IMG/VR virus record: IMGVR_UViG_3300045988_001600
Coordinates: 1-20,380 of that record
Origin: a virus
Lineage: Duplodnaviria; Heunggongvirae; Uroviricota; Caudoviricetes
DNA: 20,380 nt
Direction: 5' to 3' (one strand)
In this document: piece after piece, positions 857-9,360 of the stretch
Numbering within the stretch: position 1 is the first letter of the stretch
Layout of the letters: every line of letters begins with the position of its first letter
The notes under the pieces: model-generated
Seen by the model: only the letters and a program-made list of their open reading frames with translations
Database searches by the model: none
Told to the model about the DNA's origin: nothing
Program-made: the position numbers and the translations under genes

Positions 857-2265
857 CCTCGATTAATCCTATCTTTGAACCGTTCATTGAGGCGCATCGC
901 TACAAAGTCGCCAAAGGCGGTCGAGGTAGCGGTAAGTCATGGGCAATTGCTAGGCTGCTTGTTGAAGCGGCGCGTCGTCAGCCTGTGCGTATTCTCTGCG
1001 CTCGTGAACTGCAAAACAGTATCAGCGATTCGGTAATCCGGTTGCTTGAAGATACCATCGAGCGTGAAGGGTATTCGGCTGAGTTTGAAATTCAGCGTTC
1101 AATGATTCGTCATCTCGGAACGAATGCTGAATTCATGTTCTACGGCATCAAAAACAACCCGACGAAGATTAAATCGCTCGAAGGTATTGATATCTGCTGG
1201 GTGGAAGAAGCGGAAGCGGTAACGAAGGAATCATGGGATATCCTGATTCCAACCATCCGTAAGCCGTTCTCTGAAATATGGGTGAGCTTTAACCCGAAGA
1301 ACATCCTCGACGATACCTATCAGCGATTCGTCGTAAATCCTCCTGATGATATTTGTCTGCTGACGGTGAACTACACCGACAACCCGCACTTTCCTGAAGT
1401 TCTCCGTCTGGAGATGGAAGAGTGCAAACGCAGAAATCCGACACTGTATCGTCACATCTGGCTTGGTGAGCCAGTAAGCGCAAGTGATATGGCAATCATC
1501 AAACGTGAATGGCTTGAAGCCGCAACCGATGCGCACAAGAAACTAGGATGGAAAGCGAAAGGCGCTGTTGTTTCTGCACATGACCCGTCAGATACAGGGC
1601 CGGATGCTAAAGGTTATGCATCGCGTCACGGTTCGGTAGTTAAGCGCATTGCCGAAGGTCTGCTGATGGACATCAACGAGGGTGCTGACTGGGCTACTTC
1701 GCTGGCGATTGAAGACGGTGCTGACCACTACTTGTGGGATGGTGATGGTGTCGGTGCAGGGCTACGCAGACAGACAACGGAAGCGTTCTCCGGTAAGAAA
1801 ATCACCGCCACGATGTTCAAGGGCAGCGAATCGCCATTCGATGAAGATGCGCCATATCAGGCCGGAGCATGGGCTGATGAAGTCGTACAGGGCGACAATG
1901 TTCGCACTATTGGCGATGTATTCCGCAATAAGCGAGCGCAATTCTATTACGCGCTGGCTGACAGGCTGTATCTGACATATCGGGCGGTTGTCTACGGTGA
2001 GTATGCAGACCCCGACGACATGCTGAGCTTCGACAAAGAAGCGATAGGCGAGAAGATGCTGGAGAAGCTGTTTGCAGAACTGACGCAGATTCAGCGCAAA
2101 TTCAATAACAACGGGAAGCTGGAGCTTATGACTAAGGTCGAAATGAAGCAGAAGCTCGGTATTCCATCTCCTAACCTGGCTGATGCGCTGATGATGTGTA
2201 TGCATTGCCCGGCATTGGTCCGCGAAGAAACAGAAATATACGTTCCCTCATCCTCCGGTTGGTAA
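853..2265 (+). CDS. terL: Terminase large subunit (ATPase plus nuclease)
   Basis: 470-aa ORF with a Walker A motif near the N-terminus (KGGRGSGKS) and a Walker B-like hydrophobic stretch ending in acidic residues (IDICWVEEAE). Position between small terminase and portal; start overlaps the terS stop. Confidence 0.92.
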   Translation: MTSINPIFEPFIEAHRYKVAKGGRGSGKSWAIARLLVEAARRQPVRILCARELQNSISDSVIRLLEDTIEREGYSAEFEIQRSMIRHLGTNAEFMFYGIKNNPTKIKSLEGIDICWVEEAEAVTKESWDILIPTIRKPFSEIWVSFNPKNILDDTYQRFVVNPPDDICLLTVNYTDNPHFPEVLRLEMEECKRRNPTLYRHIWLGEPVSASDMAIIKREWLEAATDAHKKLGWKAKGAVVSAHDPSDTGPDAKGYASRHGSVVKRIAEGLLMDINEGADWATSLAIEDGADHYLWDGDGVGAGLRRQTTEAFSGKKITATMFKGSESPFDEDAPYQAGAWADEVVQGDNVRTIGDVFRNKRAQFYYALADRLYLTYRAVVYGEYADPDDMLSFDKEAIGEKMLEKLFAELTQIQRKFNNNGKLELMTKVEMKQKLGIPSPNLADALMMCMHCPALVREETEIYVPSSSGW

Positions 2266-2267
2266 AC

Positions 2268-4394
2268 ATGGCAGAGACATTAGAGAAAAAACATGAGCGG
2301 ATCATGCTCAGGTTTGACCGCGCCTATTCTCCACAGCAGGAAGTGCGCGAAAAGTGCATTGAAGCTACGAGGTTTGCTCGTGTCCCCGGAGGTCAATGGG
2401 AAGGAGCAACGGCGGCTGGAACTAAGCTTGATGAGCAGTTCGAGAAGTATCCTAAGTTTGAAATCAATAAGGTAGCAACTGAACTTAACCGCATCATTGC
2501 AGAATACCGCAATAACAGAATAACCGTTAAGTTTCGTCCTAGTGACAGAGAGGCAAGCGAAGAGTTAGCCAATAAATTAAATGGTCTGTTCCGTGCTGAC
2601 TACGAAGAAACTGATGGCGGTGAGGCTTGCGATAATGCATTTGACGACGCTGCTACTGGTGGTTTCGGTTGCTTCCGTTTGACGTCAATGCTGGTCAATG
2701 AATACGACCCCATGGACGATCGTCAGCGTATTGCTATTGAACCAATATACGACCCGTCGCGCTCTGTGTGGTTTGACCCTGACGCTAAGAAGTACGACAA
2801 ATCTGACGCGTTGTGGGCGTTCTGCATGTATTCGTTGTCACCTGAAAAATATGAGGCTGAATACGGAAAGAAACCTCCAGCTTCTCTGGATGTAACGTCT
2901 ATGACCAGTTGGGAATATGACTGGTTTGATGCAGATGTTATTTACATAGCGAAGTATTACGAAGTTCGTAAAGAGTCTGTTGACGTCATCAGTTATCGAC
3001 ATCCAATCACTGGAGAGATTGCAACATACGACAGTGATCAGGTTGAAGATATTGAAGATGAACTGGCAATAGCTGGATTTCAGGAAGTGGCAAGGCGCTC
3101 AGTGAAGCGCCGTCGTGTGTATGTATCCGTAGTGGATGGTGATGGTTTCCTTGAGAAACCTCGACGTATTCCTGGTGAGCATATCCCCCTCATCCCGGTT
3201 TATGGAAAACGCTGGTTCATTGATGACATTGAGCGTGTCGAAGGGCACATTGCAAAAGCAATGGATCCACAGCGTTTGTACAACCTTCAGGTTTCAATGC
3301 TGGCTGATACTGCAGCGCAAGACCCCGGTCAGATCCCTATAGTTGGCATGGAGCAAATTCGTGGACTTGAGAAGCACTGGGAGGCTCGCAACAAGAAACG
3401 CCCAGCGTTCTTGCCGTTGCGCGAAGTGAGAGATAAATCTGGCAACATTATCGCTGGAGCTACCCCTGCAGGATATACACAGCCTGCGGTTATGAATCAG
3501 GCATTGGCTGCATTACTACAGCAAACCAGTGCAGATATTCAGGAGGTTACAGGCGGCAGTCAGGCCATGCAGCAGATGCCAAGTAATATTGCTCAGGAAA
3601 CGGTTAACAACTTGATGAACAGAGCAGATATGGCTTCGTTTATCTATCTGGACAATATGGCGAAAAGTCTTAAACGCGCTGGTGAAGTATGGCTGTCAAT
3701 GGCGCGTGAAGTGTACGGTTCAGAACGTGAAGTGCGCATCGTTAACGAAGATGGAAGTGATGATATCGCTGTCCTGAGCGCACAGGTTGTTGACAGGCAA
3801 ACAGGGGCTGTTGTTGCGTTAAATGACCTTTCTGTCGGTCGATACGATGTGACGGTTGATGTTGGACCAAGCTACACAGCACGACGTGATGCAACGGTTT
3901 CTGTACTGACAAATGTCCTTAGCTCTATGCTTCCAACAGACCCAATGCGTCCGGCAATTCAGGGTATTATTCTGGACAATATCGATGGCGAAGGCCTTGA
4001 TGACTTCAAAGAGTACAACCGAAACCAACTGCTGATATCTGGCATTGCAAAACCACGCAATGAGGAAGAGCAGCAGATTGTTCAACAGGCGCAAATGGCA
4101 GCACAAAGCCAGCCAAATCCTGAAATGGTTCTCGCTCAGGCGCAAATGGTAGCAGCGCAGGCAGAAGCGCAAAAAGCAACTAACGAAACTGCTCAAACTC
4201 AAATCAAAGCATTTACTGCCCAGCAGGATGCGATGGAGAGTCAGGCAAACACTGTCTATAAACTGGCTCAAGCCAGAAACATCGATGACAAAGCAGTGAT
4301 GGAGGCAATACGCCTTCTGAAAGATGTCGCCGAGTCACAACAACAGCAATTCCAGTCACCACCACAGTCTCCGGCAGACTTAATGCCGAGTTAA
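2268..4394 (+). CDS. Portal protein (P22 gp1 / Sf6 gp3-like)
   Basis: The ORF track opens this frame at 2196, but that start overlaps terL by about 70 nt. The in-frame ATG at 2268, 3 nt after the terL stop, gives 708 aa. The central region (KRRRVY ... IPGEHIPLIPVYG) resembles the P22 portal as I recall it, and the C-terminal ~120 aa is A/Q/E-rich helical, consistent with a P22-type portal barrel. Confidence 0.9.
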   Translation: MAETLEKKHERIMLRFDRAYSPQQEVREKCIEATRFARVPGGQWEGATAAGTKLDEQFEKYPKFEINKVATELNRIIAEYRNNRITVKFRPSDREASEELANKLNGLFRADYEETDGGEACDNAFDDAATGGFGCFRLTSMLVNEYDPMDDRQRIAIEPIYDPSRSVWFDPDAKKYDKSDALWAFCMYSLSPEKYEAEYGKKPPASLDVTSMTSWEYDWFDADVIYIAKYYEVRKESVDVISYRHPITGEIATYDSDQVEDIEDELAIAGFQEVARRSVKRRRVYVSVVDGDGFLEKPRRIPGEHIPLIPVYGKRWFIDDIERVEGHIAKAMDPQRLYNLQVSMLADTAAQDPGQIPIVGMEQIRGLEKHWEARNKKRPAFLPLREVRDKSGNIIAGATPAGYTQPAVMNQALAALLQQTSADIQEVTGGSQAMQQMPSNIAQETVNNLMNRADMASFIYLDNMAKSLKRAGEVWLSMAREVYGSEREVRIVNEDGSDDIAVLSAQVVDRQTGAVVALNDLSVGRYDVTVDVGPSYTARRDATVSVLTNVLSSMLPTDPMRPAIQGIILDNIDGEGLDDFKEYNRNQLLISGIAKPRNEEEQQIVQQAQMAAQSQPNPEMVLAQAQMVAAQAEAQKATNETAQTQIKAFTAQQDAMESQANTVYKLAQARNIDDKAVMEAIRLLKDVAESQQQQFQSPPQSPADLMPS

Positions 4395-4407: not shown

Positions 4408-5292
4408 ATGGAAAACGAACTGATCATCGACGGTCAGGTTATTGACCTGTCTGAAACACAGGAAAATGCAGAAGAAACCATCATCCAAACAGAGTCACAG
4501 CCTGAGAATGAAAGCCAGGATGACAACGGAAAAGAGATGGCAACTGATCCTGAAAAAACCGAAGAGACACCAGAAGATTACGCCTTGCGTATTGGTGATG
4601 AAGAAATTCAGCTTAACGCTGACGATGATGATCACATTGACGGGCAACCTGCACCGCAATGGGTGAAAGATCTTCGCAAAGGCTTCAAAGAAACACAGAA
4701 AGAAAACCGTGAGTTGCGCCGCCAGCTTGAGGAAGCATTAGCCAAGCCAGCGGAACATCAGCAACCACAACCAGACGCTATTCCACCAAAACCGACTCTT
4801 GAGTCGTGTGATTATGACGAACAGGCGTTTGAACAGGCATTGACTGATTGGCATGAGAAAAAAGGCCGTGTCGAACAGCAGCAGCAACAAAAACTACGTC
4901 AGCAACAGGAATACCAACAGCGTTTCCAGCAAAGGGTAGAAGCGCATAAACAACGGGCAGCCAAACTTCCTGTGAAAGATTATCAGGAAATGGAGGCCAT
5001 TGTTCTTAGTGAGCTACCACCAATTCAGCAGGAAATCATCATTCACTGTGCAGACGAAGGCTCTGAACTACTCGCCTATGGCTTAGGTAAGAGCCAGCAA
5101 TTACGCCAGCGTGTAGCCGCTGAGACAGATCCAATTCGCGCAGCATTCCTCTTGGGGCAGATTAGCAAACAGGTAAGCCTTGCTCCAAAACCAAAGAAAG
5201 CCATCAAGCCAGAGCCGGAAGTACGTGGTGGCGGTGCTGATGCGAAACAAGACGAATTCAACAAATTATGCCCCGGCGCAAAAATCGAATAA
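4408..5292 (+). CDS. Scaffolding protein
   Basis: 294-aa acidic, Q/E-rich, predicted helical protein between portal and coat, with AGGAG upstream. The C-terminal part (KDYQEMEAIV ... LAPKPKK) parallels the coat-binding end of the P22 scaffold as recalled. Contains a CAG/CAA-rich low-complexity tract (QQQQQKLRQQQEYQQRFQQR). Confidence 0.8.
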   Translation: MENELIIDGQVIDLSETQENAEETIIQTESQPENESQDDNGKEMATDPEKTEETPEDYALRIGDEEIQLNADDDDHIDGQPAPQWVKDLRKGFKETQKENRELRRQLEEALAKPAEHQQPQPDAIPPKPTLESCDYDEQAFEQALTDWHEKKGRVEQQQQQKLRQQQEYQQRFQQRVEAHKQRAAKLPVKDYQEMEAIVLSELPPIQQEIIIHCADEGSELLAYGLGKSQQLRQRVAAETDPIRAAFLLGQISKQVSLAPKPKKAIKPEPEVRGGGADAKQDEFNKLCPGAKIE

Positions 5293-5303: not shown

Positions 5304-6575
5304 ATGCCTAACAATCTCGACAGTAACGTCAGTCAAATCGTTCTGAAAAAATTCCTTCCGGGTTTTATGTCAGATTTAGTTCTGGCGAAAACCGTAGACC
5401 GTCAGTTGCTGGCAGGTGAAATCAACTCCAGCACTGGCGATAGCGTTAGCTTTAAACGTCCGCATCAATTCTCATCCCTCCGTACTCCCACTGGTGATAT
5501 TTCAGGGCAAAATAAAAACAACCTGATCTCAGGTAAAGCTACGGGGCGTGTAGGTAACTACATCACTGTTGCTGTTGAATATCAGCAACTGGAGGAAGCG
5601 ATCAAGCTTAACCAACTGGAAGAAATTCTCGCGCCGGTTCGCCAGCGAATCGTTACCGACCTTGAAACAGAGCTTGCTCACTTCATGATGAATAACGGTG
5701 CGTTGTCACTTGGTAGCCCCAATACTCCAATCACCAAATGGTCTGATGTTGCGCAGACGGCATCTTTCCTGAAAGACCTCGGCGTTAATGAAGGTGAAAA
5801 CTATGCTGTAATGGATCCATGGTCTGCACAGCGACTTGCTGATGCGCAGACTGGTTTGCATGCTTCAGATCAATTGGTTCGTACTGCATGGGAGAACGCA
5901 CAGATCCCAACCAATTTTGGCGGCATTCGCGCACTGATGTCTAATGGGCTTGCCTCTCGTACGCAGGGGGCATTTGGCGGAACACTGACAGTCAAAACAC
6001 AGCCAACTGTTACCTATAACGCAGTTAAAGACTCATACCAGTTCACTGTAACATTGACCGGAGCGACAACCAGCGTTACAGGTTTCCTGAAAGCTGGTGA
6101 TCAGGTTAAATTCACCAATACCTACTGGCTGCAACAGCAGACCAAACAGGCGTTGTATAACGGAGCCACACCAATTAGCTTCACTGCAACGGTTACTGCT
6201 GATGCTAATTCAGACAGCAGTGGCGATGTGACGGTTACGCTTTCTGGTGTTCCGATTTATGACACTACAAACCCGCAGTACAACTCTGTAAGTCGTCAGG
6301 TAGCGGCAGGTGATGCCGTATCTGTAGTAGGCACTGCTAGCCAGACAATGAAGCCAAACCTGTTCTATAACAAGTTCTTCTGTGGACTTGGCTCTATCCC
6401 ACTGCCGAAACTGCACAGTATTGATTCTGCTGTTGCAACATATGAAGGTTTCTCCATCCGCGTACATAAATACGCAGATGGCGATGCCAACGTGCAAAAA
6501 ATGCGCTTTGACTTACTGCCTGCATATGTGTGCTTTAACCCTCACATGGGCGGTCAGTTCTTCGGTAATCCGTAA
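5304..6575 (+). CDS. Major capsid (coat) protein
   Basis: 423-aa ORF after the scaffold with AAGGA upstream and a hairpin terminator just downstream. Size and position match the P22/Sf6 coat gene; assignment is by synteny and size, not by motif. Confidence 0.82.
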   Translation: MPNNLDSNVSQIVLKKFLPGFMSDLVLAKTVDRQLLAGEINSSTGDSVSFKRPHQFSSLRTPTGDISGQNKNNLISGKATGRVGNYITVAVEYQQLEEAIKLNQLEEILAPVRQRIVTDLETELAHFMMNNGALSLGSPNTPITKWSDVAQTASFLKDLGVNEGENYAVMDPWSAQRLADAQTGLHASDQLVRTAWENAQIPTNFGGIRALMSNGLASRTQGAFGGTLTVKTQPTVTYNAVKDSYQFTVTLTGATTSVTGFLKAGDQVKFTNTYWLQQQTKQALYNGATPISFTATVTADANSDSSGDVTVTLSGVPIYDTTNPQYNSVSRQVAAGDAVSVVGTASQTMKPNLFYNKFFCGLGSIPLPKLHSIDSAVATYEGFSIRVHKYADGDANVQKMRFDLLPAYVCFNPHMGGQFFGNP

Positions 6576-6617: not shown

Positions 6618-6803
6618 ATGGATCGCATGAGTGTATTCCTTGCCGCAGATAACGAATCCGGGCATGTACAGGCCGTTATCGCAGAAAAAGACTTCCAGTT
6701 TTTCGAAAAGTTGGGCTTTGTTGCCTCAGTTGATGAATTGAAACCGACCAGTAAGCGAGGTCGTAAGGCGGCAGACAATGGCAACAGTACTGACAAAGGG
6801 TGA
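6618..6803 (+). CDS. Hypothetical small protein (61 aa) between coat and head-completion genes
   Basis: ATG preceded by AAGGA; occupies the short coat-to-gp4 interval where P22-like phages carry a small ORF. Its 3' end overlaps the next gene by about 26 nt in another frame. No motif. Confidence 0.4.
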   Translation: MDRMSVFLAADNESGHVQAVIAEKDFQFFEKLGFVASVDELKPTSKRGRKAADNGNSTDKG

Positions 6804-7260
6804 GATCGTCCTTTTTGCGCTTCGTAAGTTTGCTATTGCTTCTAATGCATCGCTGACTGATGTTGAGCCGCAATCAATTGAAGATGGTGTAAATGATCTG
6901 GAAGATATGATGTCCGAGTGGATGATTAACCCCGGCGACATTGGTTACGCTTTCGCAACTGGAGATGAGCAGCCATTACCAGATGATGAGTCAGGTCTTC
7001 CAAGAAAATACAAACACGCAGTAGGCTATCAGTTATTGCTGAGAATGCTATCTGATTACAGCCTTGAGCCAACTCCGCAAGTTCTCAGTAACGCCCAACG
7101 CTCATATGATGCCTTGATGACCGACACTCTGGTTGTTCCTTCAATGCGACGACGTGGAGATTTTCCTGTAGGACAGGGTAATAAATATGACGTGTTTACA
7201 TCTGACCGATATTATCCAGGCGATCTCCCTATGATTGATGGCGATATCCCAAACGCATAG
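6778..7260 (+). CDS. Head-to-tail adaptor / head completion protein (P22 gp4-like)
   Basis: 160-aa ORF; the N-terminal region ([13 protein letters not shown] ... [24 protein letters not shown]) aligns by eye with P22 gp4 as recalled (TKGDLVRAALRKL ... [24 protein letters not shown]). Confidence 0.85.
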   Translation: [160 protein letters not shown]

Positions 7261-7268
7261 GTGAATAA

Positions 7269-7373
7269 ATGCCGATTCAGCAACTTCCGCTTATGAAAGG
7301 TGTCGGCAAAGACTTTCGAAACGCCGACTATATCGACTATCTGCCAGTGAATATGCTGGCAATTTTGATATAA
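7269..7373 (+). pseudogene. Remnant 5' end (34 codons) of the tail-hub (gp10-like) gene, cut off at the homing-endonuclease insertion
   Basis: ATG 8 nt after the gp4-like stop encodes [31 protein letters not shown], then ILI and a stop. This matches the N-terminus of the intact tail-hub gene at 7942 ([31 protein letters not shown]) at protein level but differs at many synonymous positions. Confidence 0.7.
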
Positions 7374-7409
7374 TAAGTACATGAAAAATCGAAACTTTAA
7401 GGAGTAGAT

Positions 7410-7994
7410 ATGCTTTCTGAGAATGCTAAAGATATACCTGGATTTGAAGGTGTTTATGCCGTAACAGAAGATGGCAGGGTATATTCTCACTCACGTGTTG
7501 TTAAGGCTGCGCATGGCAGCACGCAACTCAGAAAGGGGCGCTGGTTAAAGCCTAAAATCAATCAGGGAAGGGTGCTTTATAATATCGGAGCAAAATGGAC
7601 TTTTGCCCATCGAATCGTTGCAATGACATTCCTGCCAAATCCTGAAAACAAGCCTCAGGTAAATCATATTGATGGCAATCCACTCAATAATAACGTCAAT
7701 AATCTTGAGTGGTGCACTCAAAGCGAAAACATCAAACATGCATACGCCACCGGATTAAAGAAACCAATCAAGTTTTTCGGAACCAAGCACCCAAAACACA
7801 AGTTGAGTGATGACGATGTTCTTGCAATCAAGTCATCAAAAGAAAGCTTGTCAGTAATTGCGGCTAAGTACGGGATATCTAAGACCTGGGCAAGTAGGCT
7901 AAAGCGTGATGCTAACTGGGTTCATATAAAGGTTGATTCCAATGGCAATACAACAACTACCACTAATGAAGGGATTGGGGAAAAGTGCGGTTAA
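7410..7994 (+). CDS. HNH homing endonuclease (NUMOD4-like N-terminus, HNH core, C-terminal HTH-like region)
   Basis: 194 aa with strong AAGGAG 6 nt upstream. GFEGVYAVTEDGRVYS is a NUMOD4-type motif; QVNHIDGNPLNNNVNNLEWCTQSENIKH is an HNH_3-type motif; the C-terminal LSVIAAKYGISKTWASRLKR region looks like a helix-turn-helix. Visibly AT-richer than the flanking structural genes. The 3' end overlaps the next gene by about 50 nt. Confidence 0.88.
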   Translation: MLSENAKDIPGFEGVYAVTEDGRVYSHSRVVKAAHGSTQLRKGRWLKPKINQGRVLYNIGAKWTFAHRIVAMTFLPNPENKPQVNHIDGNPLNNNVNNLEWCTQSENIKHAYATGLKKPIKFFGTKHPKHKLSDDDVLAIKSSKESLSVIAAKYGISKTWASRLKRDANWVHIKVDSNGNTTTTTNEGIGEKCG

Positions 7995-9360
7995 TGCTGA
8001 TTATATAGACCAACTTCCAGTCAATCTTTTAGCTACGCCCAAGGAGGTGTTGAATTCATCGGGATATCTTCGCTCATTCCCGGGCATTGCCAAACGTTCT
8101 GATGTAAACGGCGTATCGCGCGGTGTCGAGTACAACATGGCGCAGAATGCTGTTTATCGCGTTTGCGGTGGCAAGTTGTATAAGGGCGAAAGCGAGGTCG
8201 GTGATGTTGCCGGAAGTGGTCGCGTATCAATGGCGCATGGTAGGACATCACAGGCAGTAGGTGTTAACGGGCAACTGGTCGAATACCGCTATGATGGCAC
8301 GGTTAAAACCGTCTCAAACTGGCCTACAGATAGCGGATTCACTCAGTATGAGTTAGGTTCAGTCCGCGACATTACACGCTTACGTGGGCGTTATGCGTGG
8401 TCAAAAGACGGTACTGATTCATGGTTTATCACTGACCTTGAAGACGAATCGCATCCTGACCGCTACAGCGCACAATATCGGGCAGAATCACAGCCTGACG
8501 GAATAATCGGTATCGGCACATGGCGAGATTTCATCGTCTGCTTTGGTTCATCGACGATTGAATATTTTTCCCTCACTGGTGCAACCACTGTTGGTGCCGC
8601 GTTGTATGTCGCACAGCCATCGCTGATGGTGCAAAAAGGCATCGCCGGAACTTACTGCAAAACGCCGTTTGCTGATTCCTATGCGTTTATCAGCAATCCG
8701 GCAACAGGTGCGCCGTCTGTGTATATCATCGGCTCCGGTCAGGCGTCACCAATCTCCAGCGCGAGCATTGAGAAAATACTACGCTCCTACACTGCTGATG
8801 AACTGGCTGATGGCGTGATGGAGTCTCTGAGATTTGATGCGCATGAGTTGCTGATTATCCACCTTCCGCGCCATGTTCTTGTTTACGACGCATCTTCAAG
8901 CGCCAATGGTCCGCAATGGTGCGTACTGAAAACGGGCCTGTATGACGATGTGTACCGCGCTATCGACTTCATTTACGAAGGCAATCAGATAACGTGCGGC
9001 GATAAGCTGGAATCGGTGACCGGGAAATTGCAGTTCGACATCAGCAGCCAGTACGACAAGCAACAGGAACACCTTCTGTTTACTCCGTTGTTCAAAGCGG
9101 ATAACGCCAGATGCTTCGATCTGGAGGTGGAATCATCCACTGGCGTAGCTCAGTACGCCGACCGCCTGTTCCTCTCTGCAACCACTGACGGCATCAATTA
9201 CGGGCGTGAGCAGATGATTGAGCAGAATGAACCGTTCGTTTACGACAAACGCGTTTTGTGGAAGAAAGTAGGGCGCATCAGGAAAAACATTGGCTTCAAA
9301 TTGCGCGTTATCACGAAGTCACCTGTCACTCTGTCTGGCGCTCAGATAAGGATTGAGTAA
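7942..9360 (+). CDS. Tail hub protein (P22 gp10-like)
   Basis: 472 aa from ATG 7942 (the track opens at a TTG at 7933). Sits between the gp4-like and tail-needle genes as in P22-like phages, with the stop overlapping the next start (TAATGG). Confidence 0.85.

Follow-up and report, generated by a model that had tools for sequence, protein, structure and literature searches.

A probable mobile homing-endonuclease cassette with its own replacement gene start inside gp10 of P22-like phages

Overview

The stretch of viral DNA considered here (IMG/VR record IMGVR_UViG_3300045988_001600, positions 1 to 20,380; all 20,380 nucleotides (nt) are called "the window") covers the virion-assembly (late) operon of a temperate P22/Sf6-like phage (Lederbergvirus). 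Its gp10 gene, which encodes the tail hub or "packaged DNA stabilization protein", is interrupted soon after its start. The interruption is probably a mobile homing-endonuclease cassette, residing inside an essential gene of P22-like phages and homing by a cut in the uninterrupted allele. The cassette brings a likely promoter, a ribosome-binding site and an endonuclease gene. Its last part, which overlaps the endonuclease gene, substitutes for the ribosome-binding site, the start codon and codons 1-40 of gp10. Translation of gp10 would begin at the new start, and the original 31 codons would be left upstream as a dead stub. Sequence comparison shows the anatomy, the insertion point, the variable presence of the cassette, its very low diversity in diverse backbones, the age of the layout and the purifying selection on the enzyme; that the enzyme cleaves, where its site lies, that the promoter is active and what the stub and the re-spelling do are inferences. 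The features in question are these:

7269-7373, plus strand: native gp10 5' stub (codons 1-31 at 7269-7361, then insert-encoded ILI and a stop codon at 7371-7373)
7361-8033, plus strand: 673-bp insert relative to empty sites, after gp10 codon 30/31 (boundary ambiguous by 2 nt, "GC", so that 7359-8031 is equivalent)
7366-7374, plus strand: TGATATAAT, extended -10-like motif at the left cassette end, overlapping the stub stop codon (TGnTATAAT conserved)
7399-7404, plus strand: AAGGAG, Shine-Dalgarno sequence of the endonuclease gene, as read from the sequence
7410-7994, plus strand: putative free-standing homing endonuclease gene, I-HmuI-like NUMOD4/HNH, 194 amino acids, intact open reading frame (ORF)
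7942-8064, plus strand: replacement (re-spelled, or "recoded") gp10 codons 1-41; differences from native span 7945-8061
7942-9360, plus strand: intact gp10, 472 amino acids (PF11134 Phage_stabilise, E 1.7e-297)

The start of gp10 is present twice

A first-pass annotation of the window claimed that the 5' end of a "tail-hub gene" occurs in two copies. That gene is gp10 (PF11134), and in-frame copies of its codons 1-31 do lie at 7269 and 7942. The Phage_stabilise profile (469 positions) is matched over its full length by the downstream ORF, 7942-9360, alone. The upstream copy retains the native Shine-Dalgarno sequence (AGGTGA) and ATG, is in frame with gp10 codons 1-31 and ends after codon 34, as had been claimed (ORF 7269-7373, 34 amino acids). 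Set against the start of the downstream ORF, it is identical at 24 of 31 residues, in keeping with the estimate of about three quarters, and at 59 of 93 bases (63%), with no identical run longer than 5 nt. The next-best ungapped match to the stub in the window, on either strand, reaches 42/93, and 59/93 stands 8 standard deviations above the mean. Most synonymous positions differ, again as described: differences at the first, second and third codon positions number 8, 3 and 23, so that 23 of the 31 third positions are changed, and the 24 conserved residues use the same codon in 8 cases and a different one in 16. The contrast drawn between a GC-rich backbone style and an AT-rich, endonuclease-like style also holds: third-position GC content stands at 0.55 for the stub as for the remainder of gp10, at 0.40 for the endonuclease gene and at 0.26 for the second copy. 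The nucleotide and codon alignment thus excludes near-identity, and a simple tandem duplication was rejected on these grounds.

Which copy is native? The stub is identical to the gp10 of phages Sf6, N7 and HK620 as far as ...CTGGC, and 98.9% identical to the 5' end in a cassette-free locus (L058) whose 400 nt upstream are 100% identical. The first-pass annotation took the truncated copy to be the native one, and cassette-free phages with its upstream backbone do have a gp10 5' end 94-100% identical to it. A natural donor allele for the re-spelled tract was sought among the natives and not found; the closest of 122 is only 71% identical. Divergence in the second copy extends beyond codon 31, to codon 40 (8061). 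Within codons 32-41, 13 of 30 bases differ from native with I36V as the sole peptide change, and from 8065 on gp10 is indistinguishable from that of cassette-free phages. The endonuclease ORF and the new gp10 start overlap by 53 nt (7942-7994).

Could the insert be removed from the RNA, as a self-splicing intron or in some other way, so that the stub serves as exon 1 and is joined to codon 31/32? The insertion falls exactly inside a codon run, as an intron would, and I-HmuI, the closest solved relative of the endonuclease, is intron-encoded. This explanation is nevertheless very improbable. A search of 7000-8400 on both strands, which could miss highly diverged introns, found no Rfam family at E<=1; hence there is no recognisable group I intron and the gene is free-standing. 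A double stop terminates the stub. The second copy has a start codon, a Shine-Dalgarno-like element and an open frame, and because its peptide is conserved despite the changes at third positions, it makes sense only if translated.

Insert boundaries and expression signals

To place the boundaries of the insert, the window was aligned with Sf6, N7 and HK620, whose sites are empty, and with Salmonella phage UPF_BP1, whose site is occupied. In the three phages with empty sites gp10 is uninterrupted, and the match to the window runs to ...AATATGCTGGC and restarts at TACNCC.... This puts the junction at codon 30/31, where the first-pass annotation, with its cut near codon 31, had expected it. The UPF_BP1 insert is 99.0% identical over 7361-8063, with a different gp4 and a P22-type stub ahead of it. 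The travelling unit appears to be about 7361-8064, because codons 32-41 are still diverged and ordinary local gp10 runs from codon 41 on.

At the left end of the cassette, the core TGnTATAAT of TGATATAAT is present in five of five cassette lineages (described below) despite differing surrounding bases. TGATATAAT is likely to be the cassette's own promoter and would then free its expression from the late operon. The leader AAATCGAAAC..GGAGTAGATATG is common to the cassette lineages and to a second endonuclease gene found between gp10 and the tail needle gene. A terminator-like hairpin formed by TGCCAGTGAATATGCTGGCA and ATTTTGAT (7342-7361) was also considered; its stem is absent from lineages L154 and L157, and the hairpin is therefore treated as incidental. 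At 7342-7369, a native inverted repeat at the insertion point, TGCCAG..CTGGCA, is followed by the insert-derived ATTTTGAT, with a terminator-like score; the other cassette lineages do not conserve it.

The endonuclease

The product of the 7410-7994 ORF matches PF13392 HNH_3 at 40.6 bits (gathering cut-off 24.8) and PF07463 NUMOD4 at 35.3 bits (cut-off 23.4). Its sequence matches I-HmuI, the intron endonuclease of the SPO1 DNA polymerase gene (PDB 1U3E), at E 1e-8 with 24% identity. Residues N85, H86, N98 and N107, which take in the catalytic His and metal-binding Asn, are invariant among 28 homologues, and the motif aligns with the beta-beta-alpha-metal motif of I-HmuI. An AlphaFold (AF2) model made from the 28 homologues (pLDDT 83) predicts strands at 16-65 (an N-terminal NUMOD4 beta domain), helices at 66-114 (HNH), a linker and three helices at 134-165 (a C-terminal DNA-binding domain). 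In a Foldseek comparison of the model with the PDB, 1U3E was the sole match at E<=0.001 (E 1.6e-6), over the full length (197 columns). The TM-score of the model against 1U3E is just 0.43-0.47, a value to be expected of flexibly linked domains modelled without DNA. Residues 178-194 are predicted to be disordered; over this part the endonuclease gene reads through the ribosome-binding site and first 17 codons of gp10 in a different frame.

The ORF is intact in the window and across a 153-member protein cluster. Pairwise comparisons between lineages give pN of 0.07-0.16 and pS of 0.60-0.92, meaning that synonymous sites are saturated; with pN so low, the enzyme has been kept functional for a long time. 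Decayed copies also occur, namely a frameshifted gene split into two ORFs in E. coli ES5 (H89) and truncated proteins of 140 and 108 amino acids (P0005 and P0007), and these fit the usual gain-decay-loss cycle of homing endonuclease genes.

The second NUMOD4/HNH gene, between gp10 and the needle gene, encodes 181 amino acids (about 55% identical) and is found at L006 2589-3155 (E. coli MB53), in phage HZ41 and in L007. Its N-terminal 47 residues are nearly identical to those of the window enzyme, the remainder differs, and no stub accompanies it. Ahead of this gene, the final 150 nt of gp10 are strongly diverged, with roughly 55% identity to the window. This arrangement looks like domain swapping among cassettes aimed at opposite ends of gp10. 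The 3' end of gp10 (9085-9357) has a nucleotide diversity (pi) of 0.11-0.19, two to three times that of the rest of the gene, in occupied and empty loci alike, and this may be a conversion footprint of the second endonuclease.

Distribution and diversity of the cassette

Among the 915 complete E. coli genomes with the gp4/gp10 region, 18 have the insert. A scan of IMG/VR for the left end of the insert found 24 contigs, and among 50,697 phage records one isolated phage, UPF_BP1, carries the cassette. A first set of native sites was chosen by a pattern over codons 28-35, and the conservation test was repeated on 80 IMG/VR loci picked by the gp10 body alone. Four of these 80 carry the cassette. 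AATATGYTGGC is invariant in all 76 native loci of this sample, and the junction region CCAGTGAATATGYTGGCWAC... is almost invariant among them.

Relatives that are otherwise collinear differ in whether the cassette is there, at one fixed position. The sequence upstream of the occupied loci is of at least five unrelated kinds. For nearly all of these a cassette-free twin exists, with 98-100% identity over the 400 nt upstream (only 80% in one twin); over the stub, identity is 94-100% in all the twins. Diversity was scanned across the 22 occupied loci with enough flanking sequence. Pi is 0.000-0.016 in the insert and 0.24-0.46 in gp4, the stub falls from 0.11 to 0.04, and to the right of the insert pi is 0.03 in the adjoining DNA and mostly 0.04-0.10 further along gp10. 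The element is thus far less diverse than its flanks, which match the local backbones. Against a comparison set of 77 cassette-free gp10 genes, the replacement tract (to codon 41) has a pi of 0.006-0.007 among occupied loci and a between-group divergence (dxy) to natives of 0.35-0.45. From codon 42, gp10 is undifferentiated, with pi of 0.058 in occupied and 0.075 in empty loci and dxy of 0.067. The pattern is the footprint expected of one element entering many backgrounds at a single site; exchange would have taken place inside the stub or shortly before it on the left, and shortly after codon 41 on the right. The first-pass annotation also held that the second copy travels with the endonuclease gene, and the near-invariance of the whole cassette across divergent backbones agrees with this.

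Two observations concern the loci themselves. In E. coli STEC308 (L005) the cassette sits in a degraded prophage remnant, in which gp4 lacks its N-terminus, the needle gene is truncated and a major facilitator superfamily (MFS) transporter pseudogene lies directly upstream, with the endonuclease gene and gp10 still intact. Cassette-free P22-type gp10 alleles in IMG/VR are of two forms (L070 and L080 versus L047, L085 and others). One of the forms turns Sf6-type from codon 18 and is identical to the UPF_BP1 stub and the region upstream of it. Empty sites, too, thus have a mosaic breakpoint within codons 1-31, which past homing or loss may have left behind.

An old family with a conserved layout

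Protein searches found endonuclease homologues with 83, 82, 71 and 68% identity (P0002, P0003, P0004 and P0006), all four of which sit between gp4 and gp10 of P22-like phages. Each lineage has a native-type gp10 stub to codon 30/31 (codon 25 in L153), TGnTATAAT, the leader AATCGAAAC..GGAGTAGATATG, a ribosome-binding site, the endonuclease gene and then the overlapping re-spelled gp10 start. Since the same layout recurs in four further lineages, the cassette belongs to an old family and is not a one-off accident. The five re-spelled copies have A at codon positions 3.3, 8.3 and 30.3 and non-A at 29.1, states that are absent from natives. Position 1 of codon 29 and position 3 of codon 30 are changed in all five re-spelled copies and invariant in natives. 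The replacement tracts of the five lineages reach a maximum identity of 0.63-0.71 to natives and are 0.59-0.84 identical to each other, so they are no closer to the former than among themselves; in our reading the cassette has inherited them and has not captured them afresh. Besides UPF_BP1, no phage record in a distant blastn search matched the re-spelled part of the query. A profile of the five enzymes, run against species-representative genomes, found distant relatives only, mostly below 50% identity over long matches and none in a gp4/gp10 context.

Where is the target?

The first-pass annotation predicted a recognition site at 7340-7365, CTGCCAGTGAATATGCTGGCAATT. This interval does cover the left half-site; its last four bases (AATT), on the other hand, belong to the insert. 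The string therefore fails as a recognition site: it is absent as such from any sensitive genome, and its left half is intact in the immune genome. The target is to be sought in the uninterrupted allele, CTGCCAGTGAATATGYTGGC joined to TACACCCAAAGAAATCCTGAACAGCAGC, and probably needs both sides of the junction. One lineage (L154-156) is the most informative here. Its stub is 100% identical to a native allele (L110) for 89 nt and for 60 nt upstream, and its replacement tract differs from native only to codon 30, with native sequence to the right of the junction (identical in L156). Both native halves are thus intact in it, the left one in the stub and the right one in gp10, but never side by side. 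Neither half alone separates an immune from a sensitive genome, so if the host is immune, recognition needs both halves across codon 30/31. The restored copy may be "cleavage-resistant", as had been proposed.

How would the cassette move? In a cell shared with a cassette-free relative, the enzyme would nick or cut the uninterrupted gp10 near codons 27-41. Repair would then copy the cassette, with the stub serving as the left homology arm and gp10 from codon 41 as the right arm. The stub would be important as a left arm because gp4 is too variable and mosaic to supply homology. The host genome would be spared because the insertion keeps the half-sites apart and the restored copy has been re-spelled. 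With no identity run above 5 nt between the copies, deletion of the cassette by recombination between repeats should be prevented. Moreover, the gp10 Shine-Dalgarno sequence and start codon lie within the endonuclease ORF, so losing the cassette imprecisely would disable an essential gene and be lethal for the phage.

A more specific proposal is that the stub is a functional component rather than debris, namely a portable left homology arm usable with any P22-like gp4, and that, together with its own promoter and a re-spelled gene start that would block self-cleavage as well as deletion, the cassette represents a distinct "gene-start replacement" class of phage homing element, which may attack superinfecting relatives when a prophage expresses it. 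We put this forward tentatively, as a possibility that is rather less likely to be right than wrong. If true, such an element can inhabit essential coding sequence with neither an intron nor an intein.

Is the cassette still homing?

Several points weigh against the homing interpretation. First, only 2-5% of related loci have the cassette, and prophages account for most of its copies, some of them decayed. Second, descent and ordinary recombination could be behind part of its distribution. Third, the sharp right boundary could come from short conversion tracts or just from the great age of the element. Fourth, the five lineages probably descend from one founding insertion, in which case their shared junction is one observation, not five. 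Fifth, enzymes of the I-HmuI type are nickases and are able to cut DNA that contains their own intron; the argument from host immunity, and hence the junction-spanning site, is for that reason not airtight. Sixth, a simple consensus promoter scan did not report TGATATAAT, which has no -35 hexamer, so that the promoter call follows from the conservation of the motif.

Low frequency, the prophage setting and a single founding junction common to all lineages would also suit a relic. The cassette would then derive from a single illegitimate recombination that joined an endonuclease gene to the gp10 start of a distant phage, and would have spread by descent and homologous recombination with the enzyme no longer driving. 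We regard this as unlikely. Purifying selection on the enzyme is strong across lineages whose synonymous sites are saturated, and the ORF is intact, as described above. In addition, the window-lineage cassette is about 10-fold less diverse than the adjoining DNA in its unrelated backbones, and hitch-hiking is an unlikely source of such a pattern.

The nuclease might also serve mainly as a weapon of competition or exclusion against incoming cassette-free relatives, with its own promoter driving expression in the prophage or in early infection, and with homing as a by-product. This overlaps with the homing interpretation, and as the principal function it is quite unlikely. A left-end motif that all five lineages share and that does not depend on the late operon would suit such a role, as would a target in an essential, conserved structural gene, and intron-encoded and free-standing endonucleases are reported to bring about interference competition between phages (PMC11620839). 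Against it stand the missing -35 hexamer and the rarity of the cassette, which speaks against a large advantage.

Homing thus remains the favoured explanation. The homing model of the first-pass annotation is supported by the native stub, the cassette-linked copy, the insertion point and near-invariance in divergent backbones. The insertion is not, however, a recent local accident, since five deeply diverged lineages share the layout.

Relation to known systems

The kind of element is known, but its layout seems not yet to have been described in phages. A literature search that did not extend to the main P22 comparative survey found no paper interpreting the cassette or the UPF_BP1 endonuclease. 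The closest described architecture is that of the mobile-ORF (mORF) hybrids of fungal mitochondria, of which the phage cassette is a mirror image. These hybrids occur in atp6 of Allomyces macrogynus and in atp6, atp9, cox2 and nad3 of Glomus (PMC3630166; see also PMC6279837). Their native remnant is 91-98% identical to insert-free relatives, and their inserted copy is 64-81% identical in nucleotides and 94-100% in protein (PMC3630166). The phage figures are near these, at 94-100% for the stub and, for the inserted copy, 63% of nucleotides and 77% of residues. Both systems combine an endonuclease ORF with a foreign, diverged duplicate of a gene terminus and a displaced native remnant. They differ in orientation: in mORF hybrids the C-terminus is replaced, in frame with the core upstream of the mobile ORF, whereas the phage cassette replaces the N-terminus and has a new start codon. 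Because a 5' end is replaced, the phage cassette must also supply a ribosome-binding site along with that start codon. Its endonuclease gene lies upstream of the replacement and overlaps it as a separate ORF that is not fused in frame. Further, the phage host is a temperate phage and not an organelle, and the phage enzyme is HNH/NUMOD4. Mitochondrial mobile ORFs usually encode GIY-YIG or LAGLIDADG enzymes.

The cassette also resembles the free-standing homing endonuclease genes of phages (the T4 seg and mob genes; intronless homing) in having no intron or intein, in its variable presence and in adjoining its presumed target. For the T4 type, the linked allele bears protective nucleotide differences (PMC2988022). 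Unlike these intergenic genes, however, the cassette interrupts a coding sequence and leaves a 31-codon stub, and in place of a handful of polymorphisms its protective tract would be a discrete, heavily re-spelled 120-nt block with a sharp end. Insertions that split a gene are known from mobE in Aeh1 nrdA and mobA in the T4 topoisomerase gene 39/60, and the phage survives (PMC2988022). As in those cases, a free-standing HNH endonuclease gene lies within an essential coding region. There, both halves are needed and two polypeptides reassemble, whereas here full-length gp10 is restored and the upstream fragment appears dispensable. The enzyme is like I-HmuI in its beta domain, HNH domain, C-terminal helix-turn-helix and catalytic motif, and unlike the intron-encoded I-HmuI in being free-standing.

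Current annotation covers the parts. In E. coli genomes, RefSeq/PGAP labels them as an HNH endonuclease, gp10 and a 93-nt gp10 pseudogene "missing C-terminus". In the UPF_BP1 record (NC_047875; L001 2283-3593), gp10 is annotated from an internal start, with 436 amino acids instead of 472; the stub is unannotated, and the re-spelled gp10 5' end that overlaps the HNH gene is missed.

The surrounding operon

The remaining genes of the window are, in order:

853-2265: large terminase
2196-4394: portal
4408-5292: scaffold
5304-6575: coat
6778-7260, plus strand: gp4, tail accessory factor or head-tail adaptor, the upstream neighbour of the stub (PF11650 P22_Tail-4, E 1.7e-74)
9360-10208: Sf6-type tail needle
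after the tail needle and before the tailspike: ejection protein genes
15177-17039: tailspike with a P22-type head-binding domain
after the tailspike, minus strand: gtr O-antigen genes

The last of these, at 17092-19788 on the minus strand downstream of the tailspike, comprise a GtrII-like glucosyltransferase gene and a family-2 glycosyltransferase gene and form an O-antigen conversion module; the window therefore belongs to a temperate, serotype-converting phage or prophage.

Implications

What does the cassette mean for P22-like phages? First, its layout explains a recurrent annotation oddity, namely the 31-codon gp10 "pseudogene" and the mis-called gp10 start of UPF_BP1. Second, it points to a candidate natural nuclease target of about 40 bp in a gene that is conserved among phages of Shigella, E. 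coli and Salmonella. Third, crosses of Sf6, HK620 or P22 with UPF_BP1 would offer a tractable system for studying how homology arms, recoding and conversion tracts shape homing. Fourth, to our knowledge, homing endonuclease genes have been thought viable in essential genes only through introns or inteins, through intergenic seats or, rarely, through splitting of a gene into two pieces. The cassette would be another solution in phage, one in which the element carries its own spare, re-spelled gene start.

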